Shown here in pieces: positions 1-17,786 of a stretch of 24,000 nucleotides of DNA (its first letter is position 1; each line of letters starts with the position of its first letter). The notes beneath the pieces are model-generated. The model searched no databases. It was not told the origin of the DNA and worked only from the letters and a program-made list of their open reading frames with translations. Both the position numbers and the translations under genes were made by a program. Source of the stretch: Arenimonas terrae (lineage in GTDB: Bacteria; Pseudomonadota; Gammaproteobacteria; Xanthomonadales; Xanthomonadaceae); NCBI RefSeq assembly GCF_006265115.1, contig NZ_SMDR01000003.1, positions 323,694 to 347,693 of the forward strand, written 5' to 3'.

Positions 1-1025
1 CTAAGCTCGTCGCCTGCCGTTCTCTCCGTTTCAGGAGCATCCGACCTGGTTGCGGGACCTCTTTGCTCCGCACCCCGTATCGAGAGGAACGCGAGTCCGC
101 AGAGCACCACAAGCACCGCAATCACCGGCAGCTTCGGAAAGCCAGGGAGCAGCATTGCGACCAGCAGGACTACGCCGACAATCAGCAACGCGCGTGGGTT
201 GGCGAGCATCTGTCGCGGAATTTCGGTCCCGAGCTGGGCATCGGCCGCGGCTCGTGTGATGATGATGCCTGTGGCGACGGCGATGACTAGTGACGGAATT
301 TGCGTGACGATCCCGTCGCCGATAGTGAGCAGGGTAAACCGCTGGACCGCGTCGGCCCACGGCAGTCCCATCTGAGCGATGCCGATGGCCAGGCCGCCGA
401 CGATATTGACGCCGATGATGATGATTCCGGCGATCGCATCGCCCTTGACGAACTTCGTCGCGCCGTCCATCGCGCCGTAGAAGTTGGCCTCTCTTTCTAC
501 CAACGCTCGTCTAGAACGCGCCTCCTTCTCATCGATCAAACCCATGTTCATATCGGCGTCGATGCTCATTTGCTTGCCGGGCATGCTGTCTAGCGTGAAC
601 CTCGCAGCGACTTCGGCCACGCGCTGTGCGCCGCTGGTCACAACCACGTACTGAACGACCACGAGAATAAGGAAGACGACGACACCGACGATGTAGTTGC
701 CGCCCACGACGAACTCTCCGATCGCACCAATGACCCGACCGGCATCGGCACCTTCCAGGATGAGGCGGGTGGCCGAGACGTTTAGCGCCAGCCTGAACAG
801 CGTCGACAGGAGCAGCAAAGTCGGAAAAGTCGAGAACTTGAGTGGCGTCTCGATGAAAAAGGTCACAAGAAGCACCAGCAGCGCCATGCTGATGTTGGTT
901 ATGAGAAGGAAGTCGAGCACCGGCGATGGAACTGGAACAAACAACAGCATCAGTACGCCCATCACTAGTGCGATAAGCACCAGGTCGCGACGACCCGCCC
1001 ACAGTTGCTGGAGGGCATGCATCAT
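1..1025 (-). CDS. sctV: Type III secretion export-gate protein SctV (FlhA/HrcV/YscV family), N-terminal ~341 codons; continues beyond the left edge
   Basis: Absent from the ORF track (no stop in window). My translation of the minus strand from ATG 1025: MMHALQQLWAGRRDLVLIALVMGVLMLLFVPVPSPVLDFLLITNISMALLVLLVTFF..FRLALNVSATRLILEGADAGRVIGAIGEFVVGGNYIVG..ARFTLDSMPGKQMSIDADMNMGLIDEKEA..FYGAMDGATKFVKGDAIAG..LTIGDGIVTQIPSLVIAVATGIIITR. FTLDxMPGKQMSIDAD and KFVKGDAIAG are FHIPEP-family hallmarks. KQMSID and the short ILEGADAG loop resemble injectisome rather than flagellar FlhA. The ATG overlaps the sctU stop (ATGA, 1022-1025). Confidence 0.9.
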   Translation of the reverse strand, partial: MMHALQQLWAGRRDLVLIALVMGVLMLLFVPVPSPVLDFLLITNISMALLVLLVTFFIETPLKFSTFPTLLLLSTLFRLALNVSATRLILEGADAGRVIGAIGEFVVGGNYIVGVVVFLILVVVQYVVVTSGAQRVAEVAARFTLDSMPGKQMSIDADMNMGLIDEKEARSRRALVEREANFYGAMDGATKFVKGDAIAGIIIIGVNIVGGLAIGIAQMGLPWADAVQRFTLLTIGDGIVTQIPSLVIAVATGIIITRAAADAQLGTEIPRQMLANPRALLIVGVVLLVAMLLPGFPKLPVIAVLVVLCGLAFLSIRGAEQRGPATRSDAPETERTAGDEL

Positions 1026-2086
1026 CGCTCGTCCCTCATCGCCCAGATGCGCCGGTAGATGGGAGCCAGCGCGATATACAGGTCAGCCGGGACCATTGCG
1101 TCAATTCCGCAACCTTTGTAGAGCGCCCGGGCCAGCACAGGCGACCTGATGATTGGGACGCCGCTCTTCGCGGCGATCTTGCGAATCTGGGCGCTGAGCG
1201 CGCCCGCGCCTTTGGCCGTGACCACCGGCGCCATCGTCTCCCCGACGCGGTAGCGGAGTGCGACGGCAAAATGGGTCGGATTGGTGACGACCACATCGGC
1301 GTCCTTCACACTCGCCAGCGCTTTGATCTTGCGAAGAAGTTCCTGAACCTGCTGCTTTCGCTTTGCCTTCACCGCTTGGTCGCCATCGCGGCGCTTGATC
1401 TCGTCCTTCAGCTCTCGCCGGCTCATCTTCATCCGGCGCTTGAAATCACGCCTGACGAATAGCAGGTCGACGACTGCGGCGGCCGCGATGACGATCAGGA
1501 CATAGATTGAAGCGGTCTTGAACATGTCCAGCAGCACCGCGCCGAGCTTCTTTGGATGCGCAGACGCGATGCTGTCGGTCACCGCCTGCAGGTTCCACAG
1601 GAAGGCGGCACAGATTGCGGCGAGCACCGACAGTTTGACCAGAATCTTTCCCAGCTCCCACAGCGATTTCATCGAGAATATTCGCTTTATCGCGGTGGCC
1701 GGACTTAGCCTGGAGAAGTCCGGCCGCAACGGATGGGTGGTGAACATCGGTCCGGTCTGCGCTAGGTTCGCGGCCACGGCGATCACCGGAAGTCCGATCG
1801 CGAGCGGGGCAAGCGCCTGCCAAAGCGATGACGACGACAGCAGGGATCGGGCCACGAAGGCGCCGTCTACAGCCGGAGACGAGCTGGCCACGGCGATCAT
1901 CCGCTTCGTCATGCCAGCGATGGCCATGGCGATGGCAGGCGCCGTCAGTGCGACGATCGCCGCCGAGACGATCATCACCAGTGCGGACGATAGATCCATG
2001 CTTTTCGCCACCTCGCCCTTCTTCCTGGCCTCTTCCAGCCGGTAAGGGGTGGCCTGTTCGGTCTTGTCCTGGTCCTGGTCGCTCAT
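1022..2086 (-). CDS. sctU: Type III secretion substrate-specificity switch protein SctU (FlhB/YscU/HrcU family)
   Basis: 354 aa. N-terminus MSDQDQDKTEQATPYRLEEARKKGEVAKS is the FlhB/SctU signature. Four hydrophobic segments. Conserved NPTH autocleavage site within VVTNPTHFAVALRY. Length fits injectisome SctU. Start is 1 nt after the sctT stop. Confidence 0.9.
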   Translation of the reverse strand: MSDQDQDKTEQATPYRLEEARKKGEVAKSMDLSSALVMIVSAAIVALTAPAIAMAIAGMTKRMIAVASSSPAVDGAFVARSLLSSSSLWQALAPLAIGLPVIAVAANLAQTGPMFTTHPLRPDFSRLSPATAIKRIFSMKSLWELGKILVKLSVLAAICAAFLWNLQAVTDSIASAHPKKLGAVLLDMFKTASIYVLIVIAAAAVVDLLFVRRDFKRRMKMSRRELKDEIKRRDGDQAVKAKRKQQVQELLRKIKALASVKDADVVVTNPTHFAVALRYRVGETMAPVVTAKGAGALSAQIRKIAAKSGVPIIRSPVLARALYKGCGIDAMVPADLYIALAPIYRRIWAMRDER

Positions 2087-2087
2087 G

Positions 2088-2861
2088 TCACATTCCCAGC
2101 ACCGACGGAACGCGCGACGTAGCGTCCCGGAACAGCCGCGCGAACGCGGCCGGCATGGCCCCGAGCGAGGATGCCGTCAGAATCATCGCAACGAACACCT
2201 TGAGCGGCAGGGCCAGGAAGTAGACATTCGCTTGCGGCATCGAGCGTGTCGCATAGGCAACACCGACGTCTATCGCGAAGAGGCAGAGAACCGTGGGCGC
2301 GGCGACCATCAGACCCAGGAGGAAGCTCGACCCCACCATGGACAAGAATGCGCTTGCATCCAGGTAGACGCTCGACCCGGCGAAGGGAAGCACTTCCGCG
2401 CTGACTACCAGGCCTGCGTAGAGGTCCAGATGAAGGTCCATGGTGAAAAATAGGGTCGTGGCCAACAGCAGAAGTGCCGCTCCAAGCGGCGACTGGGCAT
2501 CACCCTGCGAACCGGGATCGAACAATGTCGCTGAGCCAAGGCCCGCCTGAACGTCGATCACCCAGCCGGCCGTATGCACCGCAGCCATTGGAAAGGCCAC
2601 GGCGGCTCCAAAAGCCGTTCCGATCGCCAGCTCACTTAGCGCAGCGATCGTCCAGGCCACCGGCCCGCTCAGGTCAGCGGGTATCGCCGCGGGCGATGAC
2701 GCCAGAACCGTCAGCCAGGCTAGGCTCAGAACCACGACGATACGAATCAGAGGCGGCGCCCAACGCATCGGGGACAGGGGCGGAATGGCAACGACGGGGA
2801 TGTATCGGATCACGGCGAGCAGGAACATCCCCATCGCTCCCTCGACATGCTGCATGTTCAC
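2088..2861 (-). CDS. sctT: Type III secretion export apparatus protein SctT (FliR/HrcT family)
   Basis: 257-aa polytopic membrane protein in the canonical position between sctS and sctU. GTG 2861 overlaps the sctS stop (GTGA); alternative ATG at 2855. Confidence 0.8.
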   Translation of the reverse strand: MNMQHVEGAMGMFLLAVIRYIPVVAIPPLSPMRWAPPLIRIVVVLSLAWLTVLASSPAAIPADLSGPVAWTIAALSELAIGTAFGAAVAFPMAAVHTAGWVIDVQAGLGSATLFDPGSQGDAQSPLGAALLLLATTLFFTMDLHLDLYAGLVVSAEVLPFAGSSVYLDASAFLSMVGSSFLLGLMVAAPTVLCLFAIDVGVAYATRSMPQANVYFLALPLKVFVAMILTASSLGAMPAAFARLFRDATSRVPSVLGM

Positions 2862-3121
2862 AGCCGGCCCGCCAGTTCGAACATCTGGCGCGACAGGTCG
2901 ACCGCCACCGACATCATCCAGCTTCCGAAAGCGAGACAGATGCCCATGAGGACAATCAGCTTCGGAACAAAGGTCAGGGTCATTTCCTGGATCTGTGTGA
3001 CCACTTGGACGATTGAAACGAGCACTCCCACAACCAAAGTTGCCAGCAGCAGCGGCATAGATATCTTCGCGGCGGCCAATAGGGTGTCCGCTAGCAGGCG
3101 GATGGCGAGATCGGAGTCCAC
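2858..3121 (-). CDS. sctS: Type III secretion export apparatus protein SctS (FliQ/HrcS family)
   Basis: 87 aa, two hydrophobic helices. VSIVQVVTQIQEMTLTFVPKL matches the FliQ/SctS Q-x-TQIQE-x-T/L-x-FVPK motif. GTG start 8 nt after the TPR gene stop. Confidence 0.85.
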   Translation of the reverse strand: MDSDLAIRLLADTLLAAAKISMPLLLATLVVGVLVSIVQVVTQIQEMTLTFVPKLIVLMGICLAFGSWMMSVAVDLSRQMFELAGRL

Positions 3122-5516: not shown

Positions 5517-6548
5517 TCACATGGCATCGTCGGGCACAGGGATCAGCAGGGTGAACACAGTGTGGCCCGGCCGCGAGCGGTAGCTCAGTGAGCCGCGGTG
5601 TTCGCGCGCCACCTGCTGGGCCAGCGGCAGGCCGAGGCCGCTGCCTTCGGCGCGGCCGGACACCAGCGGCAGGAAAATGCGTTCGGCCAGGTCCTCGGGC
5701 ACGCCGCGGCCGTCGTCGGCGATCTCGACGCGCACGGCCAGGCGGTGCGCGCTGTCGCCGATCAGCAGGTGGTGTTCGGCGCGGGTACGCAGCTGCACGG
5801 TGGTGGCGCCGGACTCGAGCGCGTTGCGCACCAGGTTCCACAGCGCCTGCGCCAGGCGGTCGCCGTCGCCGGGGAATTCCGGCAGCGAGGGATCGAAGTC
5901 GCGCACCAGCTTGATCGCCCAGCCGGCTTCGACTTCCGCCAGCTGACGCACGCGCTCGAGCACGGCGTGGATATTGGTCGGCGCGAACGCGCGCGGCGGC
6001 GCCGGGTTGAGCAGGCGGTCGACCAGGGCGGCAAGACGGTCCACTTCGCTGCCGATCAGGTCCACCAGTTCGCGGGTTTCGTCGCCTTCGACGCGGCGCG
6101 CCAGCAGCTGCGCGGCACCCTTCATGCCGGCCAGCGGATTGCGGATCTCGTGCGCCAGGCCCTTGAGCGCGGCGGACAGTGCGGCCGGCAGGGCGGTCGC
6201 GGGATCTTCGCCGGGGAATTCTTCGGCCAGGTGCGCTTCCAGGCGCAGGCCGCCATCGTCGCTGCGCGCCAGCCACAGATCGGCGAAGCGTTCGCTGCCG
6301 CCCGGATGCGCGAGCCGGGCGCGCCGCACGCGCAGCGCTTCGCCGGAGGCCGGCAGGCGCGGCAGCAGTTCGGTCAGGCGGCCGCCCTCGGCATCGAGTT
6401 CCCCCAGGCCCAGGCCGACCAGGCGCCGGGCGCTCACGCCCAGCCAGCTGGCGAAGGCAGCATTGCAGCCCAGCAGCCGGCCCTCGGCATCGGCCCAGGC
6501 CAGGGGCGTGCTGAGCTGGTCGGCGGTGGGCGGCAGCGGCTCGGACAT
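5517..6548 (-). CDS. ntrB: Nitrogen-regulation sensor histidine kinase NtrB (GlnL)
   Basis: 343 aa. N-terminal PAS-like region. H-box LKGLAHEIRNPLAGMKGAAQLLARR. RDFDPSLPEFPGD and PLVSGRAEGSGLGLPLAQ closely parallel E. coli NtrB (RDYDPSLPE.., PMVSGREGGTGLGLS). C-terminal PGHTVFTLLIP. Confidence 0.85.
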   Translation of the reverse strand: MSEPLPPTADQLSTPLAWADAEGRLLGCNAAFASWLGVSARRLVGLGLGELDAEGGRLTELLPRLPASGEALRVRRARLAHPGGSERFADLWLARSDDGGLRLEAHLAEEFPGEDPATALPAALSAALKGLAHEIRNPLAGMKGAAQLLARRVEGDETRELVDLIGSEVDRLAALVDRLLNPAPPRAFAPTNIHAVLERVRQLAEVEAGWAIKLVRDFDPSLPEFPGDGDRLAQALWNLVRNALESGATTVQLRTRAEHHLLIGDSAHRLAVRVEIADDGRGVPEDLAERIFLPLVSGRAEGSGLGLPLAQQVAREHRGSLSYRSRPGHTVFTLLIPVPDDAM

Positions 6549-8023: not shown

Positions 8024-8053
8024 GGCGAATCTCCTGGATGACCCGTGCAACGC

Positions 8054-8069
8054 TGCAGCTTCCGTGCCA
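8054..8069 (-). promoter_or_regulatory. Sigma54-type -24/-12 promoter candidate P1 (TGGCACGGAAGCTGCA)
   Basis: Minus strand reads CCG TGGCAC GGAAG CTGCA. One mismatch to TGGCAC-N5-TTGC (C for T). Predicted +1 near 8043, about 20 nt before the PA2169-family ATG. Nearly identical to P3. Confidence 0.6.
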
Positions 8070-8158: not shown

Positions 8159-8833
8159 TCAATGCCGGTTCGGCGGCAGCGCACGGTGGATCGCCGTCGC
8201 CGCGACGGCCGCTTCCGCCATCGCCACCGCCACCTCGCTCAGGCCCGCGACCACATCGCCCGCGGCGTAGAGGCCGGGCACGCACGTGCTTTGGCGGATG
8301 TCCACTTCCAGGTGGCCGTCGCCGGCACGGCGCGCGCCCAGCGCCACCGCCAGGTCGACGGGAACCCGCGCGAAGCGGATCGCCTGCATCGTGTCGACGA
8401 CGGGCGCCGGCGCGGCGGCGGCGTGCAGCCACACGCGCGGGTGCCCGCGCCGCAGCGGCAGCGGACACGCCACCGTCTGCGGTTCGATCGCACCGGTGGC
8501 GATCAGCACGCAGCGCGCGCGCACCAGCACGCCGTCCACTTCGGCCACGAAGCCCAAGCCGTCGCGGGCCAGGGTCTCGACCACGCCGCGGCAGACGACG
8601 ACGCCGGCGGCTTCGGCCTGGCGAAGGATCCGCTCCAGCAGCCGCGATCCGGGCTGCGCGCCCGGCACGCCCGGGCCCCGGCGCGGATGCCGCGGGCGCT
8701 GCCCGCGCGTCTCGCCGCGATCCACCACACAGGCCTGGCGGCCGTAGCGCGCGAGATTGGTCGCCGCGACCAGCCCGGCCGGTCCACCGCCAACGACCAG
8801 GCAATCCATGCGGCTGGCCGGCAGCGCGTTCAT
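8159..8833 (-). CDS. FAD-dependent pyridine-nucleotide-disulfide (thioredoxin-reductase-like) oxidoreductase, unusually short (224 aa)
   Basis: N-terminal FAD dinucleotide fold DCLVVGGGPAGLVAA and C-terminal GLYAAGDV..AVAMAEAAVAATAIHRAL. There is no second GxGxxA/G NAD(P)H-binding motif between them. Confidence 0.7.
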   Translation of the reverse strand: MNALPASRMDCLVVGGGPAGLVAATNLARYGRQACVVDRGETRGQRPRHPRRGPGVPGAQPGSRLLERILRQAEAAGVVVCRGVVETLARDGLGFVAEVDGVLVRARCVLIATGAIEPQTVACPLPLRRGHPRVWLHAAAAPAPVVDTMQAIRFARVPVDLAVALGARRAGDGHLEVDIRQSTCVPGLYAAGDVVAGLSEVAVAMAEAAVAATAIHRALPPNRH

Positions 8834-11199: not shown

Positions 11200-11215
11200 A
11201 GCAAGAGCGGTGCCA
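11200..11215 (-). promoter_or_regulatory. Sigma54 promoter candidate P2 (TGGCACCGCTCTTGCT), exact consensus
   Basis: Minus strand reads GCCGC TGGCAC CGCTC TTGCT TCC. Predicted +1 near 11189, giving a ~150-nt leader before the lipoprotein ATG. Lies in the divergent region shared with the EBP gene. Confidence 0.7.
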
Positions 11216-11341: not shown

Positions 11342-12724
11342 ATGACCGAGCAACAGACACTGTTCATCGTCGACGACGACGTTGGATTCGTTCACGCCGC
11401 CGCCGAGCTGGCGCGCGAGCAGGGTTTCATCATCACCGTGGCCGGCAGCGTCGAACAGGCGCTGACGCGGCTCAAGGACACCAGCTTCGACGTCGCGCTG
11501 ATCGACCTGTCGCTGCCCGACGGCAGCGGGCTGGAGCTGCTCGAGCACCTGGACCTGGGCGGAAGCACCCAGGTCATCCTGATCACCGGCCATCCCACCG
11601 TGGAATCGGCGCTCAAGGCGATGCACCTGCCGATCGTCGACTACGTGGTCAAGCCGCTGCGCGCGGCCCAGTTCACCGACCTGCTGCAGTCGGCGGCGAA
11701 GCAGCGCCGCGTGGTCGGCACGCAGGGCGAACAGTGGCACGGCCTGGCCGGGCCCTCGGCGGCGATGGCCGACGTGCGCCAGCAGATCTGCCGCGTGGCG
11801 CCGACCGACGCTTCGGTGTTCATCGAAGGCGAAAGCGGCGTGGGCAAGGAGCTGGTGGCCGGCGCGATCCATGCCGAGAGCGGACGCACCGGACCCTTCG
11901 TCGCGCTCAACTGCGGCGCCGTGCCGGCCGAACTGCTCACCAGCCAGCTGTTCGGGCACGAGCGCGGCAGCTTCACCGGCGCCAACAGCCGCCACGTCGG
12001 CCTGTTCGAGCAGGCGCAGGGCGGCACCCTGTTCCTGGACGAGCTGACCGAGATGCCGATCCACCTGCAGGTGCACCTGCTGCGCGCGCTCGAGACGCGG
12101 ACCATCCGCCGGGTCGGCGGCAGCGAGGACATCCCGGTGGACGTGCGGGTGATCTCGGCCACCAACCGGCCGCATGCCGAGGCGATCGAGGCGGCGAAGC
12201 TGCGCGAGGACCTGTACTACCGGCTGGCCGAATTCCCGATGACCCTGCCCTCGCTGCGCGAGCGGCCGGAGGACGTGCTGCCGATCGCCGACCTGTTCCT
12301 GCAGCGCCTGAACGAGCGCTACGGCACCCGCCGCGCACTGTCGAAGGAAGGCGCCGACCGCCTGCAGCGCTACAGCTGGCCGGGCAACATCCGCGAGCTC
12401 AAGAACATCATCCAGCGCTCCTACATCCTGGCCGACGGCGACCTGATGACGCCGACCCTGCCCACCGGCAACGCACGCCCGCTGGCGGAAACCGAAAGCA
12501 CAATCACCTTCGCGGTCGGAACGCCCATGCACGAGATCGAAAGGCGCATGCTGTTCAAGACCCTGGCCTTCTTCGAGAACAACAAGGCCAAGGCCGCGCA
12601 GGCCCTGGGCGTCACCACCAAGACCATCTACAACCGCCTCACCGCCTACCAGTCGTCCAACGAACCCAGGGAGCGCACCGATGAACGCCCCGACACGCCG
12701 TCTCGATGCGAAACCGGCACCTGA
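11342..12724 (+). CDS. Sigma54-dependent response regulator (REC + AAA+ sigma54-interaction + Fis-type HTH), NtrC family
   Basis: ATG 11342 with GGAGG 6 nt upstream. REC: LFIVDDDVGF..DVALIDLSLPDGSG. Walker A GESGVGKE. Sigma54-contact loop as GSFTGA. LFLDELTEMP, RVGG, RVISATN, REDLYYRL. C-terminal HTH AKAAQALGVTTKTIYNRL. Confidence 0.9.
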   Translation: MTEQQTLFIVDDDVGFVHAAAELAREQGFIITVAGSVEQALTRLKDTSFDVALIDLSLPDGSGLELLEHLDLGGSTQVILITGHPTVESALKAMHLPIVDYVVKPLRAAQFTDLLQSAAKQRRVVGTQGEQWHGLAGPSAAMADVRQQICRVAPTDASVFIEGESGVGKELVAGAIHAESGRTGPFVALNCGAVPAELLTSQLFGHERGSFTGANSRHVGLFEQAQGGTLFLDELTEMPIHLQVHLLRALETRTIRRVGGSEDIPVDVRVISATNRPHAEAIEAAKLREDLYYRLAEFPMTLPSLRERPEDVLPIADLFLQRLNERYGTRRALSKEGADRLQRYSWPGNIRELKNIIQRSYILADGDLMTPTLPTGNARPLAETESTITFAVGTPMHEIERRMLFKTLAFFENNKAKAAQALGVTTKTIYNRLTAYQSSNEPRERTDERPDTPSRCETGT

Positions 12725-12959
12725 AGGCCTGGCGGTGTCGCGCCCGCCACCGGGTGAGCTGGTGACGATCCCTCGCCAGGAGCTGCAGGCCCTGGTGCAC
12801 GACATCCGCAACCACCTCAATTCCATGCTGATGAACGCCGGAGTTCTGGCGGTGCAAAGCCGCGCCAATCCGTCGTCGGCCCGCCATGCCGCCCAGCTCG
12901 AGGACGACGGCGAGAAATGCGCCCAGGCGCTGCGGAACCTGTCCGACCGCTATCTGTGA
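12681..12959 (+). CDS. 92-aa stand-alone H-box (DHp-like) protein; candidate phosphotransferase or kinase modulator
   Basis: ATG 12681 with AGGGAG 7 nt upstream; overlaps the EBP gene 3' end by 44 nt and ends 13 nt before the kinase ATG. High third-position GC in this frame. LQALVHDIRNHLNSMLMNAGVL resembles the kinase H-box (LATLSHELRNPLAALMASVEVL). It is followed by a second predicted helix and no ATPase domain. Confidence 0.55.
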   Translation: MNAPTRRLDAKPAPEGLAVSRPPPGELVTIPRQELQALVHDIRNHLNSMLMNAGVLAVQSRANPSSARHAAQLEDDGEKCAQALRNLSDRYL

Positions 12960-12972
12960 CCGCGGCGGGCGA

Positions 12973-15900
12973 ATGAGCTTCCCCGAGTTCTTCCGCACGC
13001 TCAGCCAGCCCATCAGCCGACTCAGCCTCACCGGGTGGCGGGCCTATGTCTTCGCCGCCGCGATGATCCTGGGCGCGGTGGTCGTGCGCTGGGCGCTGCC
13101 CGAGGGCCTGGGCTCGCGCGTGCCCTTCCCGACCTTCTTCCTGGCCGTGTTCCTGTCGGCCTGGGTCGGCGGCTGGCGCGCCGGCCTGCTGGCCTCGGCG
13201 CTCACCATCGTCTGCGGCGTCACCGTCTTCCCGATCACCCGTCCGCCCTGGGACTGGCGCGACCTGGTTGCGCTGGGCTTCGTGTTCGCGGTCTGCGTGG
13301 TGGGCGCCTACGCCTGCGCGCGGCTGCGCGCGTCCACCGACGTGATCGAGAAGGACCGCGGCTGGTACGAACGCATCCTCGACCGCGTCGGCGAGGCGGT
13401 GCTGGTGGTGGACGACGCTGGCCGCCTGCGCTATTTCAACAGCCACGCCGCCGGCCTCTGGGCGCTGGACGCCAGCCACCTCGACCGTGACGTCGGCCTG
13501 GCGGTGGTGCTGTGGCACGAGGGCCGCGACGCGCCCTTCGACGGCCTGGGCGAGCTGATCCGCGACAACGAGGGCAGCTGGGAGCTTCCGCTGGGGCTGG
13601 AGGTGCGCGCCGGTGCGCGGCGGGTGCCGGTCGTCGGCAGCGTCTCGCGCGTCCGCGACCCCGACTACGGCGACGCGGCCGTGGTGTCGGTGCAGGACAT
13701 CCACGCCCTGCGCGAGGCCACGCGCCGGATCGAGGCGACCGAGCGGCGCATGCGTGCGCTGTTCGACTCCGACATCGTCGGCCTGTTCAGCATCGATGGC
13801 CGCGGCCGCATCAGCGCCATGAACGACGGCATGCGCCGCTTGCTGGGTTACGGCGCCGACGCCGGCTCGCCGGAGGCGCTGGCGCAGATCGCCGACGAGG
13901 ACCTGCTGTCGCAGCTGGGCGTCGACGGCACCGAAAACGCGATCGCCTTCGGTCCCTTCGACTGCCGGCTGTCGGGCCCCTCGGGTGAAGTGTGGGTGTC
14001 GCTGGGCGTGGTGCCGATCACGCCGCGCGAGCGCATGGTCTTCGCCATCGACATCGGCGCCCGCAAGCGCGCCGAAAGCGCGGTGGACAGCAGCGAGGCG
14101 CGCTTCCGGCAGCTGGCGGAGGCGTCCGCGGCAGTGGTCTGGCAGGCGCGGGCCTCGGGCGCGCTGACCGCGCAGATCGGCTGGAGCGAATTCACCGGCG
14201 CGCCGCCGCTGGCCTCGTTCGACCAGTGGCCCGACTGGGTGCACCCGGCCGACCAGGACGCGGCGCGGCAGCTCGTGCAGGCGCTGCACACCCAGCGCGA
14301 CGGCGTCGAGGCCGAGCTGCGCTTCCGCCATGCCTCCGGCGACTACCGCCATGTCGGCGTGCGCGGCGTGGTGCTCGACGGTCCGGCCACCGGCGCCATC
14401 GAATGGATCGGCACCCTGCGCGACATCCACCAGCGCCGCCAGGCCGAGGAGGCGCTGGCCTCGAAGGAAGTCGAGCTGCGCCTGATCCTCAACGCCATGC
14501 CGGCGCGCATCGCCTACATGGATGCGGACGCGGTGTTCCAGTGGGCCAACGGCAACTTCACCCAGTGGTTCGGGGTTGCCGGCGACGTCAAGGGCCGGCC
14601 GCTGGCCGAGGTGCTGCCGCCCGACGCGGTGTCCACGCTCTACCGCTCGCTGCAGGTGGCGCGGCGCGGTTTCGTCAGCCAGCAGGAGTGGCTGGAGAAT
14701 CACCCCACGCTGGGCCTGCGCTGGACCACGACCACGTTTTCGCCGGACCTGGACGAACGCGGGCGCGTGCGCGGCGTGATCAGCCTGTGCATGGACAGCA
14801 CCGACCGCCACGAGGCCGAGGACGCGCTGCGGCGCAGCGATGCCGAACACCGCACCCTGGCCGAGAACGTGCCGCACATGGTCTGGATGTCCGACGCCGA
14901 GGGCCGGCTGCAGTACTGCAACGCGCGCTGGCACGAGTTCACCGGCCAGGACTCCAGCGGCCGCTGGACCGACCCGGCGCACCCCGCGGACCGCCAGGCG
15001 GCCGAAGCGGCGCTGCAGCAGGCCGCGCAGTCGCGCACCGAGCTCAACATCGAAGTGCGCTACTGCCGCGCCACCGACGGCGCCTTCCGCTGGCACCTGG
15101 TGCGGGCGCTGCCCCTGCTCGATGGCGAGGACCGCGTACTGCGCTGGTACGGCACCTGCACCGACATCGAGGACCAGCGCATCGCCCAGGAGACGCTGCG
15201 CGAGGCGCATTCGCGCACCACGCATTTCCTGGCCACGCTCAGCCACGAGCTGCGCAATCCGCTGGCGGCGCTGATGGCCAGCGTCGAGGTGCTCGAGCAC
15301 GCTGCGCTGGACGAGAACCGCCGCTTCGAGGTCCGGCAGGCGATCCAGCGCCAGGCGTGGCACCTCAAGCGCCTCACCGACGACCTGCTCGACATCTCGC
15401 GCATCACCCTGGGCAAGATCCAGATCAGCAGCGACACCATCGACCTGCGCGAGGTCTGCCAGCACGTGTGCCGGGACTTTTCCGAGAAGGCCCAGCGCCA
15501 CGAGGTCGAACTGGACTGCGACGTGCCCGACGATCCGATCCTGGTCAACGGCGACCCTTCGCGCATCCGCCAGTGCGTGGACAACCTGGTGTCGAACGCG
15601 ATCAAGGCCAGCATGCCGGGCATGCGCGTGCACGTCTCGACGCGCGTGGCCGAACGTTTCGCCGAGATCATCGTGCGCGACGAAGGCGTGGGCATCGAGC
15701 AGGACGCGAAGGCGACGATCTTCCTGCCCTTCTCGCAGGCCGACGACTGGCGCAACCGGGGCCTGGGCCTGGGCCTGAGCATCGTCAGCAAGCTGGTGGA
15801 GCTGCACGGCGGCTCGGTCTGGGTGGACAGCGACGGCCGGCACTGCGGCGCCACCTTCGGTATCCGGCTGCCGGTGGCCAAGGGCGGCGCGGCGGCTTCC

Positions 15901-16335
15901 GCCGCGCCGCCGGCGGACGAGCCGGCCCGGTCGGCCGAGAGCCTGGTCGGCAAGGTGTTGATCGTCGAGGACGAAACCGACAACGCGGTCGCGCTGCAGT
16001 ACCTGCTGGCGCTGGAGGGGCACGACGTGTCGGTGGCCGAGGACGGCGTCGCGGCGATCGCGCTGGCCGAATCGCTGCGGCCGGACGTGGTGATCTGCGA
16101 CCTCGGCCTGCCGCCGCCGCTGGACGGTCTGCAGGTGGCGAAGCGCCTGCGCGCGGCGCGCGGCGACGACATCCATCTGTGCGCATACAGCGGCTACGGC
16201 TCGCGCGAGGACGTGGCGCGCTCGCTGGCGGCGGGCTTCGACACCCATCTCACCAAGCCGGCGACGCCGCGGGCGATCGCCGCCGAGATCCTGCGCGGGT
16301 TGGGGCGGGTAATGGCTTCGCGAAGCGGCAAATAG
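12973..16335 (+). CDS. Hybrid sensor histidine kinase: N-terminal multi-TM (DUF4118-like) region, multiple PAS/PAC domains, HisKA, HATPase_c, C-terminal REC
   Basis: ATG 12973 (M30 of the track ORF) lies just after the small ORF's stop. Hydrophobic N-terminus GWRAYVFAAAMILGAVVVRWAL... Repeated PAS/PAC signatures (e.g. RFRQLAEASAAVVWQA, EHRTLAENVPHMVWMSDAEGRLQYCNARW, FRWHLVRALPL). H-box LATLSHELRNPL. G-boxes RDEGVGI and GLGLGLSIV. REC: KVLIVEDETDN..DVVICDLGLP..HLTKP. No HPt (HxxKG) domain seen. Confidence 0.9.
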   Translation: MSFPEFFRTLSQPISRLSLTGWRAYVFAAAMILGAVVVRWALPEGLGSRVPFPTFFLAVFLSAWVGGWRAGLLASALTIVCGVTVFPITRPPWDWRDLVALGFVFAVCVVGAYACARLRASTDVIEKDRGWYERILDRVGEAVLVVDDAGRLRYFNSHAAGLWALDASHLDRDVGLAVVLWHEGRDAPFDGLGELIRDNEGSWELPLGLEVRAGARRVPVVGSVSRVRDPDYGDAAVVSVQDIHALREATRRIEATERRMRALFDSDIVGLFSIDGRGRISAMNDGMRRLLGYGADAGSPEALAQIADEDLLSQLGVDGTENAIAFGPFDCRLSGPSGEVWVSLGVVPITPRERMVFAIDIGARKRAESAVDSSEARFRQLAEASAAVVWQARASGALTAQIGWSEFTGAPPLASFDQWPDWVHPADQDAARQLVQALHTQRDGVEAELRFRHASGDYRHVGVRGVVLDGPATGAIEWIGTLRDIHQRRQAEEALASKEVELRLILNAMPARIAYMDADAVFQWANGNFTQWFGVAGDVKGRPLAEVLPPDAVSTLYRSLQVARRGFVSQQEWLENHPTLGLRWTTTTFSPDLDERGRVRGVISLCMDSTDRHEAEDALRRSDAEHRTLAENVPHMVWMSDAEGRLQYCNARWHEFTGQDSSGRWTDPAHPADRQAAEAALQQAAQSRTELNIEVRYCRATDGAFRWHLVRALPLLDGEDRVLRWYGTCTDIEDQRIAQETLREAHSRTTHFLATLSHELRNPLAALMASVEVLEHAALDENRRFEVRQAIQRQAWHLKRLTDDLLDISRITLGKIQISSDTIDLREVCQHVCRDFSEKAQRHEVELDCDVPDDPILVNGDPSRIRQCVDNLVSNAIKASMPGMRVHVSTRVAERFAEIIVRDEGVGIEQDAKATIFLPFSQADDWRNRGLGLGLSIVSKLVELHGGSVWVDSDGRHCGATFGIRLPVAKGGAAASAAPPADEPARSAESLVGKVLIVEDETDNAVALQYLLALEGHDVSVAEDGVAAIALAESLRPDVVICDLGLPPPLDGLQVAKRLRAARGDDIHLCAYSGYGSREDVARSLAAGFDTHLTKPATPRAIAAEILRGLGRVMASRSGK

Positions 16336-16353: not shown

Positions 16354-16369
16354 TGGCACCGACCTTGCA
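16354..16369 (+). promoter_or_regulatory. Orphan sigma54 promoter candidate P6 (TGGCACCGACCTTGCA), exact consensus
   Basis: GAC TGGCAC CGACC TTGCA GCC begins 19 nt after the kinase TAG (16333-16335). Predicted +1 near 16380. No credible ORF downstream before the convergent SDR gene. Confidence 0.6.
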
Positions 16370-16434
16370 GCCTTCTCCCGGAGGGCGGTGCCTGCGGCCC
16401 GCGCTCCGCGGCGCGCCGGCTACCGGCGGCCGTG

Positions 16435-16469
16435 GCCCCCGGGGCGGCGTTCGAGGCCGCCCCCGGGGC
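16435..16469. terminator. GC-rich stem-loop between convergent kinase and SDR genes (possible bidirectional terminator, no U-tract)
   Basis: gcccccggggcggc-gttcgag-gccgcccccggggc: 8 bp + 1-nt bulge + 4 bp. Ends 5 nt before the SDR stop codon. Confidence 0.45.
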
Positions 16470-16473
16470 AACT

Positions 16474-17609: not shown

Positions 17610-17625
17610 TGCAGCATCCGTGCCA
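17610..17625 (-). promoter_or_regulatory. Sigma54 promoter candidate P3 (TGGCACGGATGCTGCA)
   Basis: Minus strand reads GCGCA TGGCAC GGATG CTGCA AGCC, 15/16 identical to P1. Predicted +1 near 17599. Confidence 0.6.
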
Positions 17626-17653: not shown

Positions 17654-17669
17654 CGGCACCGCAATTGCT
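17654..17669 (+). promoter_or_regulatory. Sigma54 promoter candidate P5 (CGGCACCGCAATTGCT)
   Basis: GGCACCGCAATTGCTTCC is 16/18 identical to P2 (GGCACCGCTCTTGCTTCC). One mismatch (C for the first T). Sits back-to-back with P3, about 30 bp away. Confidence 0.45.
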
Positions 17670-17770: not shown

Positions 17771-17786
17771 TGGCATGTGCATTGCT
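17771..17786 (+). promoter_or_regulatory. Sigma54 promoter candidate P4 (TGGCATGTGCATTGCT)
   Basis: GGCG TGGCAT GTGCA TTGCT TCG. One mismatch (TGGCAT, which I recall as a tolerated variant). Predicted +1 near 17797, 57 nt before the BON-protein ATG. Confidence 0.65.

Follow-up and report, generated by a model that had tools for sequence, protein, structure and literature searches.

Introduction

How does a phosphoryl group reach the receiver of a sigma-54 activator when the hybrid histidine kinase encoded next to it has no histidine phosphotransfer (HPt) domain? The question is raised by a locus of Arenimonas terrae in which a short open reading frame (ORF) of 92 codons lies between the gene of a sigma-54 enhancer-binding protein (EBP) and the gene of a hybrid kinase (Table 1). 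We analysed this small ORF within a window of 24,000 nucleotides, that is, the whole stretch of DNA under study (contig NZ_SMDR01000003.1, positions 323,694 to 347,693), and all positions given without a locus label refer to this window. Multi-step phosphorelays need a second histidine carrier, and the known carriers are either HPt domains or degenerate kinases that keep a domain resembling the catalytic and ATP-binding (CA) domain. Because no HPt domain is found by Pfam in the hybrid kinase, a canonical relay would be short of a second histidine here. An earlier, sequence-only reading of this DNA had proposed that the small protein resembles the dimerisation and histidine phosphotransfer (DHp) hairpin of kinases and acts either as a minimal phosphotransferase between the two flanking proteins or as a DHp mimic that inhibits the kinase.

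We find that the small protein belongs to a conserved family of DHp hairpins without any ATPase domain, whose histidine is invariant and whose constant genomic partner is the EBP. The reading that we prefer, and to which we give about even chances, is that the small protein is a reversible His-phosphotransfer partner of the EBP receiver.

The small ORF is a conserved gene

That the small ORF is real and conserved beyond chance is confirmed, because 11 close clusters keep its frame and start, all of them match HisKA, and the ratio of nonsynonymous to synonymous substitution rates (dN/dS) amounts to 0.34-0.46 in comparison with three orthologues. The 11 clusters were found by a word-indexed search and span 87-93 amino acids (aa) and 59-100% identity. 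They share the start M-T-x-P-T, and H40, D41, R43, N44, H45, N47, S48, D76, G77 and C80 are among their invariant residues. The sequence-only reading was accurate in the Shine-Dalgarno (SD) sequence AGGGAG, the length of 92 aa and the codon of His40 (CAC, 12798-12800; the codon of Asn44 follows at 12810-12812), and both peptides that it quoted are present, LQALVHDIRNHLNSMLMNAGVL in the small protein (residues 35-56) and LATLSHELRNPLAALMASVEVL in the H-box of the hybrid kinase. Its claim of a high GC content at the third codon position has to be qualified: the three positions are coding-like with 0.75/0.47/0.80, the third rising to 0.86 outside the overlap described below, but this is lower than the 0.92-0.94 of the neighbouring genes. 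Likewise, the ORF does adjoin both neighbours, but the tight fit between them is in fact an overlap of 44 nt with the EBP gene on one side and a gap of 13 nt on the other, between the stop of the small ORF and the start of the hybrid kinase gene at 12973. An ATG listed for the kinase at 12886 is an upstream in-frame codon; the homologues start at the equivalent of 12973.

The overlap of the small ORF with the EBP gene suggests translational coupling. The EBP tail motif PRER.D(D/E)R, which covers the SD sequence and the start codon of the small ORF, is retained in two of the related loci (L001 and L023; related loci are designated by L numbers throughout). Overlaps of 14-50 nt are usual across the loci and recur, among those in which both genes are called, in L001, L020-L024, L027, L029 and L030.

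The small gene is under purifying selection, yet it evolves faster than its neighbours, with dN/dS values of 0.14-0.22 for the EBP and 0.28-0.30 for the kinase. Compared with their L001 counterparts, the EBP is 91% identical, the kinase 81% and the small protein 59%. The antisense strand likewise has an open 'shadow' frame (12639-13031, minus strand), a frequent finding in GC-rich DNA; in L024 this frame is broken by a stop codon.

A kinase reduced to its DHp hairpin

HisKA (PF00512) is the only Pfam family detected in the small protein, in which residues 32-89 align with profile positions 3-59 of 66 at a sub-threshold score of 20.9 bits (E = 3.8e-4). HATPase_c, Hpt and Spo0B gave no Pfam match at E <= 1. 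All 11 close homologues match HisKA as well, the best with E = 2.2e-5, and several relatives carry precomputed PF00512 matches, while neither Hpt (at E <= 1) nor the Spo0B-helix family was matched by any of the 11. AlphaFold2 modelling of the single chain with the family alignment predicts a hairpin of two helices (residues 32-62 and 67-91) with a mean predicted local distance difference test (pLDDT) value of 74, the block of helix 1 reaching 83-89, and the protein terminates one residue past helix 2. The H-box near the start of helix 1 is of the type H-(E/D)-x-x-(T/N); the HisKA motif is H-E-L-R-T-P, with the proline at His+5 as a hallmark. In the small protein it reads HDIRN (residues 40-44), not HxxKG as in HPt domains, and only two helices are predicted, not four. 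Both helices show an a/d pattern of hydrophobic residues when their sequence is read in heptads, by which Cys80 would occupy a core position.

More distant comparisons point the same way with varying strength. In the PDB, a profile of the close family found nothing significant, its best match being an unrelated protein at E = 0.38; with a core profile of 27 sequences the top three matches were histidine kinases, the histidine aligned on histidine, at E = 0.018-0.14. The family profile aligned with the H-box helix of the neighbouring kinase at an hhalign probability of 87%, again His on His. The top Foldseek matches include the kinase DHp domains 5c93, 4u7o and 6rh8, with root-mean-square deviations (rmsd) of 1.6-4.3 Å at E values of about 0.5, and ChpT (4qpk, rmsd 5.2 Å, E = 0.59; 4qpj is also present). 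None of these is significant, as expected because the query is a mere hairpin. The small protein is not a recent copy of the DHp domain of the neighbouring kinase: this origin was considered and rejected, as identity between the two amounts to just 27% over 51 aa (pairwise E = 0.33). Following the histidine, the specificity positions hold N, S, M and N in the small protein versus A, A, A and S in the kinase's own DHp domain.

Overall, we regard it as robust that the small protein is a kinase of which only the DHp hairpin is left, and most likely it forms a homodimeric four-helix bundle. The HisKA match, the predicted hairpin and the His-on-His profile alignment agree with the sequence-only reading, which had described a DHp-like protein limited to an H-box helix and a second helix, lacking both an ATP-binding domain and the HPt motif.

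An invariant histidine without a kinase domain

An exhaustive phmmer search against 1.84 billion representatives returned just 25 matches at E <= 0.001, and two profile searches brought the family to about 65 clusters of 41-233 aa in total, which come from Arenimonas or closely related Lysobacterales. In three large searches no ATPase (CA) domain was found in any member, the longest of which has 233 aa. A scan of one genome per species, with a profile built from an alignment of 17 sequences, yielded 14 loci, of which 13 belong to Arenimonas or Lysobacterales and one lies on a contig of a metagenome-assembled genome (MAG) labelled Rhizobium.

The histidine of the H-box and the asparagine at +4 are present in all 64 members that contain an H-box, in line with the role that the sequence-only reading gave to His40, and the arginine at +3 is nearly invariant. 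At +1, D or E occurs in 44 of the 64 members and Q, A, S or R in the other 20 (31%). Proline at +5 is found in none of the 64; the position holds H, R, G, Q, A, S or F in the 62 tabulated members and G and R in two more. Cys80 is conserved to at least 90% in an alignment of 32 sequences. The acid at +1 has been linked to autokinase activity, and T/N at +4 to phosphatase activity (bioRxiv 10.64898/2026.02.27.708494). Since His and Asn(+4) are kept in 64 of 64 members that have no CA domain, have lost the +1 acid in 20 cases and lack Pro(+5), strict selection on the histidine of this family without any autokinase function is a robust conclusion. The conserved surface stretch LNSxLMNA follows the histidine, at the place where kinases such as EnvZ and HK853 contact receiver domains. 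Across the roughly 20 loci available, this hairpin surface and the alpha-1 helices of the receivers hardly vary, which leaves no usable covariation signal.

The 92-aa form is real, but it marks one end of the family and does not define it. Many relatives are long forms of 150-225 aa (L010-L017 and L020-L022, for example L020 3235-3780) with an additional N-terminal domain of ~110 aa that carries the motif WL..RGC. This domain is predicted to adopt an alpha-beta4-alpha fold (pLDDT up to about 88) and precedes a hairpin at residues 121-148 and 156-178 (pLDDT about 90). Pfam gave no match for it and structural comparison none of significance, and a tblastn search did not find it in the window. 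We consider that it may be a new small sensor domain.

Two further cases stand apart. In Arenimonas daejeonensis KACC 14631 (L007 7729-8252) a frame change near 8050 divides the long form into an ORF of 109 aa for the N-terminal domain and a hairpin ORF, the latter annotated by NCBI as a hypothetical protein of 65 aa; this reflects an error in sequencing, or else the gene is a natural pseudogene or naturally split. A Lysobacterales MAG contains a second, divergent DHp-like small ORF on the minus strand (L019 5885-6250; …WIHEFRNALGNV…GCDRCLRLL), which lies upstream of the EBP gene and is divergently transcribed; hhalign relates it to the family profile with a probability of 92.9% and E = 3.8e-7.

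The EBP is the constant partner

In all loci examined (about 30), the small gene stands directly after an orthologous gene for an EBP with a receiver (REC) and a sigma-54 interaction domain (62-91% identity), and five types of locus can be told apart by the form of the small gene and by what follows it (Table 1). No hybrid kinase adjoins the small gene in L007, L009-L017, L020/L021 and L029, and the three genes thus fail to co-occur as the conserved unit that had been envisaged. Because the EBP is always directly upstream and the kinase present only in some lineages, we consider it robust that the EBP, not the kinase, is the constant partner of the small protein.

In the fifth type of locus the hairpin is fused to a receiver that is 56% identical to the REC domain of the hybrid kinase, while the sensor, DHp and CA parts of the kinase are missing. 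The fusion is found on two independent contigs from different samples, and the copies differ by 23% in protein sequence. With a dN/dS of 0.28 overall, 0.26 in the hairpin part and 0.35 in the receiver part, it is under purifying selection. Such a protein would be the expected look of a D1-H2 relay unit.

Both proteins flanking the small ORF contain a receiver with an intact active site, which agrees, as does the lack of an HPt domain in the kinase, with what had been read from the sequence alone. The EBP (Response_reg 2.4e-19, Sigma54_activat 2.3e-64 and HTH_8 7e-8 in Pfam; LuxO is among its NCBIfam matches, under the cut-off) has Asp55 (11504-11506) and the canonical switch pair Thr82/Tyr101 of terminal receivers. 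In the hybrid kinase the H-box around His758 (15244-15246) is intact, and the REC domain has Asp1043 (16099-16101) and, after beta-4, the motif AYSGY (16183-16197). This motif, together with a histidine at the aromatic switch position, is found in seven of seven orthologues, the fusion included. FxSGY and FATGUY motifs are known from intermediary receivers such as CckA-Rec, MrrA and SdrG (PMC9981736). The resemblance of AYSGY to them lends weak support to a relay. A CckA-type kinase receiver was considered and rejected, the top PDB matches being receivers of the OmpR family and Spo0F.

Proposed phosphotransfer between two receivers

We propose that the homodimer of the small protein, as a four-helix bundle, docks receiver domains and that His40 would serve as phosphoryl carrier. 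The receiver fusion and the co-operonic hybrid kinase without HPt domain point to His40 as the carrier between a kinase-type receiver and the EBP receiver. In loci of the window type, the phosphoryl group would pass from His758 of the kinase to Asp1043 of its own receiver, from there to His40 of the small protein and finally to Asp55 of the EBP. His-Asp transfer being reversible, the small protein would also remove phosphate from the EBP when the kinase is off and would in this respect resemble the bifunctional phosphotransferase PhyT. Where no kinase gene adjoins, phosphate would come from a hybrid kinase encoded at another site, as in the LuxU-LuxO relay. Dimerisation, phosphorylation of His40 and the direction of phosphoryl flow are what we infer in this scheme. 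A stand-alone DHp domain is biochemically plausible, since the HisKA and HATPase parts of EnvZ remain active in vitro as split polypeptides (PMC3591291).

Several known systems share features with the proposed one. Spo0B of Bacillus subtilis and ChpT of Caulobacter and Brucella are dimeric proteins and degenerate kinases, too, in which a histidine of the hairpin shuttles phosphate between two receivers, and Spo0B has H-D-x-x-N around its histidine. However, they possess a C-terminal CA-like alpha/beta domain, which is not found in the family of the small protein, and the latter has no match to the Spo0B-helix family of Pfam and is similar to HisKA itself. PhyT of Sphingomonas melonis is a kinase-derived DHp protein encoded beside its response regulator, just as the small gene is located beside that of the EBP, and stress-type genes surround the locus studied here as well. 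In the general stress response, PhyT passes phosphate from the FATGUY-type receiver SdrG to PhyR and otherwise has a negative regulatory role (PMC5898713). Yet PhyT is anchored in the membrane, has a periplasmic domain, is of the HWE/HisKA_2 type (HRxxN) and retains a degenerated ATPase domain, whereas the small protein is soluble, HisKA-like and free of any ATPase remnant. In Vibrio, luxU lies directly after luxO, an arrangement mirrored by the small gene right after its LuxO-like EBP gene. LuxU is a small His-phosphotransfer protein that conveys phosphate from HPt-less hybrid kinases to the REC-sigma54 activator LuxO (PMC10841015). Unlike the small protein with its two predicted helices and no Hpt match, LuxU is a monomeric four-helix HPt protein.

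HisKA proteins without HATPase domain make up 3.66% of the HisKA proteins in SMART, about half of them with HE/DxxN/T (PMC3591291), and incomplete kinases are a recognised class (bioRxiv 10.64898/2026.02.27.708494). They have the same domain content as the small protein, and so does the isolated DHp domain of EnvZ, which works apart from its CA domain (PMC3591291). These are, however, database categories or engineered fragments without an assigned role, whereas the family described here is natural and conserved, has its place in an operon with a defined partner gene and includes a receiver fusion. In Mycobacterium tuberculosis, Rv0601c (HK2) has a phosphorylatable histidine without an ATP-binding domain and works with Rv0600c and TcrA. 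This system comprises two sensor kinases and one regulator (PMC3544749). There, the histidine protein and an ATPase-only partner form a split kinase, whereas no such partner was seen here in the window or the related loci. A characterised natural phosphotransferase that consists of a DHp domain only was not found in the searchable literature.

A number of observations weigh against phosphotransfer. In about half of the lineages no kinase stands beside the small gene, so that a relay cannot be read from the locus there. The HisKA score lies under the Pfam cut-off of 26.9 bits, and the kinase receiver is overall not CckA-like, its closest solved relatives being OmpR-family receivers and Spo0F. 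Spo0B and ChpT also keep their CA-like domain. The characterised DHp-type phosphotransferases Spo0B, ChpT and PhyT are degenerated kinases, PhyT with a degenerated ATPase domain (PMC5898713). The sensor-like alpha/beta domain of many relatives fits a regulated enzyme better than a passive shuttle. Moreover, the invariant asparagine fits a phosphatase equally well, because H-(D/E)-x-x-N is also the phosphatase motif of HisKA proteins (PMC3591291). We put the more far-reaching claim, namely that a DHp hairpin on its own is a natural histidine phosphotransferase, with signal-gated long-form relatives, in a system that controls a sigma-54 stress-type regulon of Arenimonas, at somewhat less than even chances.

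Alternative functions

The alternative that survives best, although we consider it rather unlikely, is a dedicated phosphatase or anti-activator. Here, the hairpin dimer would dock to the phosphorylated EBP receiver and either dephosphorylate it via Asn44 or hold it inactive, with no phosphate being carried, and the N-terminal domain of the long forms would act as a gate. Such a function would suit a family whose only universal neighbour is the EBP, with a gene overlap that suggests 1:1 co-expression, and it would be at home in loci without a kinase. The phosphatase-linked Asn(+4) is invariant, the +1 acid is replaced by Gln in kinase-less long forms, and the sensor-like domain of the long forms would be in place, too. 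What speaks against it is the histidine, which is kept in 64 of 64 members without possible kinase function, although a pure phosphatase or binder would need this residue less. In addition, the fusion to a kinase-type receiver in L005 and L008 would be futile unless the histidine passes phosphate to the receiver as a sink, and an HPt-less kinase would be left without a route to the EBP. Sequence data do not separate a phosphatase from a phosphotransferase role for the small protein.

Alternatively, the small protein could provide the acceptor part of a split kinase: His40 would be phosphorylated in trans by a CA domain from the adjacent kinase or from a different one, and the small protein would then phosphorylate the EBP directly, providing a second output channel with its own specificity. 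HisKA proteins without HATPase domain have indeed been proposed to be split kinases, for which split EnvZ is a precedent in vitro (PMC3591291), and the specificity positions after the histidine are unlike those of the kinase's own DHp domain. We nevertheless regard this as improbable, as the +1 acid is missing in 31% of the members and Pro(+5) in all of them, and as the neighbouring kinase has an intact H-box of its own. Besides, no HATPase-only protein is encoded in the related loci or in the window, where both HATPase_c domains belong to complete kinases (12973-16335 and 5517-6548).

Slightly less probable in our view is the DHp mimic, a small protein that heterodimerises with or caps the DHp domain of the hybrid kinase and thereby inhibits or re-tunes it, as the small anti-kinase Sda does. 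A small helical hairpin encoded just ahead of the kinase gene, as in the window-type loci, would be well placed to do so. An anti-kinase of this sort would be expected to accompany its target, but the small protein is conserved also in loci of types c and d, where no kinase adjoins its gene. The low identity to the kinase's DHp domain weakens this part of the sequence-only reading further, and an invariant histidine followed by a conserved surface stretch is unexpected for a mimic of the bundle core.

Finally, that the gene is a decaying, functionless remnant of a former cognate kinase gene is very improbable despite its faster evolution and the frameshifted long form of A. daejeonensis, as about 65 clusters preserve the frame, the start codon, the SD sequence and the length. 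Besides two invariant residues, the family has several with a conservation of at least 90%, and the dN/dS of the gene lies clearly under 1.

Implications of a possible phosphotransfer by a hairpin

If phosphotransfer by the small protein holds true, a hairpin-only protein would be a minimal carrier of the second histidine and the smallest relay protein of its kind, and the CA-like domain of Spo0B, ChpT and PhyT would be dispensable for His-Asp-His-Asp relays. The long-form relatives would represent signal-gated phosphotransferases that place a checkpoint at the H2 step. The hairpin-receiver fusion would be a D1-H2 unit, and a simple system would be at hand in which to study the contribution of the additional domain in Spo0B and ChpT. 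A role would also be suggested for the few per cent of HisKA proteins without an ATPase domain. In the window, the wiring of the sigma-54 activator would be complete, amid six promoter-like sites and stress-type genes (DUF2383, BON, short-chain dehydrogenase/reductase (SDR) and lipoprotein genes). Members of the family occur in a single genus-level lineage only, and its function is one that we infer.

Sigma-54 sites and other features of the window

The coordinates of the system and of the promoter-like sites are collected in Table 1, together with the types of related loci. Allowing for at most one mismatch, six sigma-54 -24/-12 elements lie in the window where 0.67 are expected, and none of 100 shuffles reached six. 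The sites are located ahead of the DUF2383, lipoprotein, SDR and BON-domain genes. They probably constitute the regulon of the EBP, whose putative content looks like a general-stress set.

Table 1. Features of the system in the window and types of related loci.
Feature	Position	Strand	Description
Sigma-54 EBP gene	11342-12724	+	460 aa; REC, AAA+ sigma54-interaction and Fis-type helix-turn-helix domains (Pfam)
Shine-Dalgarno AGGGAG	12668-12673	+	7 nt ahead of the small-ORF ATG, within the EBP coding tail
Small ORF	12681-12959	+	92 aa; disordered N-terminal tail (residues 1-31), then DHp-like helical hairpin
Overlap of small-ORF start and EBP 3' end	12681-12724	+	44 nt
Helix 1, residues 32-62	12774-12866	+	H-box HDIRNHLNSMLMNAGV, His40, Asn44, conserved surface stretch LNSxLMNA (AlphaFold2)
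Helix 2, residues 67-91	12879-12953	+	near-invariant DG..CA motif; Cys80 at 12918-12920 (AlphaFold2)
Hybrid histidine kinase gene	12973-16335	+	1120 aa; DUF4118-PAS x4-HisKA-HATPase_c-REC (Pfam); facultative downstream partner
Sigma-54 promoter-like site	8054-8069	-	
Sigma-54 promoter-like site	11200-11215	-	
Perfect sigma-54 -24/-12 element	16354-16369	+	TGGCACcgaccTTGCA; 19 nt past the kinase stop
Sigma-54 promoter-like site	17610-17625	-	
Sigma-54 promoter-like site	17654-17669	+	
Sigma-54 promoter-like site	17771-17786	+	
Locus type a			short form followed by HPt-less hybrid kinase; window, L001, L018, L023, L024, L027, L030
Locus type b			long form, then hybrid kinase; L022
Locus type c			long form, kinase absent within 8 kb; L009-L017, L020/21, and L007 with apparent frameshift
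Locus type d			69-aa form, then convergent SDR gene; L029
Locus type e	L005 229-930; L008 3180-3701		hairpin fused via Pro-rich linker to receiver

Downstream of the perfect element past the kinase stop lies a GC-rich hairpin (16436-16470), which borders directly on the stop of the convergent SDR gene. L001 and L024 share both promoter and hairpin, and L026 keeps the promoter. The stretch 16354-16470 is a candidate for a sigma-54-dependent small RNA of roughly 60-90 nt or for an antisense transcript into the SDR gene; Rfam gave no match in the window.

A further kinase gene on the minus strand (5517-6548) encodes a soluble PAS-HisKA-HATPase_c protein of 343 aa without a receiver or an adjacent regulator, and it is possible that this protein is an alternative direct kinase for the EBP. 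In L001 and L024, Ku/LigD genes that the window does not have lie on that side of UbiB. At its left end (1022-3121, minus strand) the window contains the flagellar export genes FlhB, FliR and FliQ, then a TPR protein and an AraC-type regulator. An ORF of 224 aa on the minus strand (8159-8833) matches about the first 120 of 291 Pyr_redox_2 positions, corresponding to the FAD-binding Rossmann part, and may be a truncated oxidoreductase gene.

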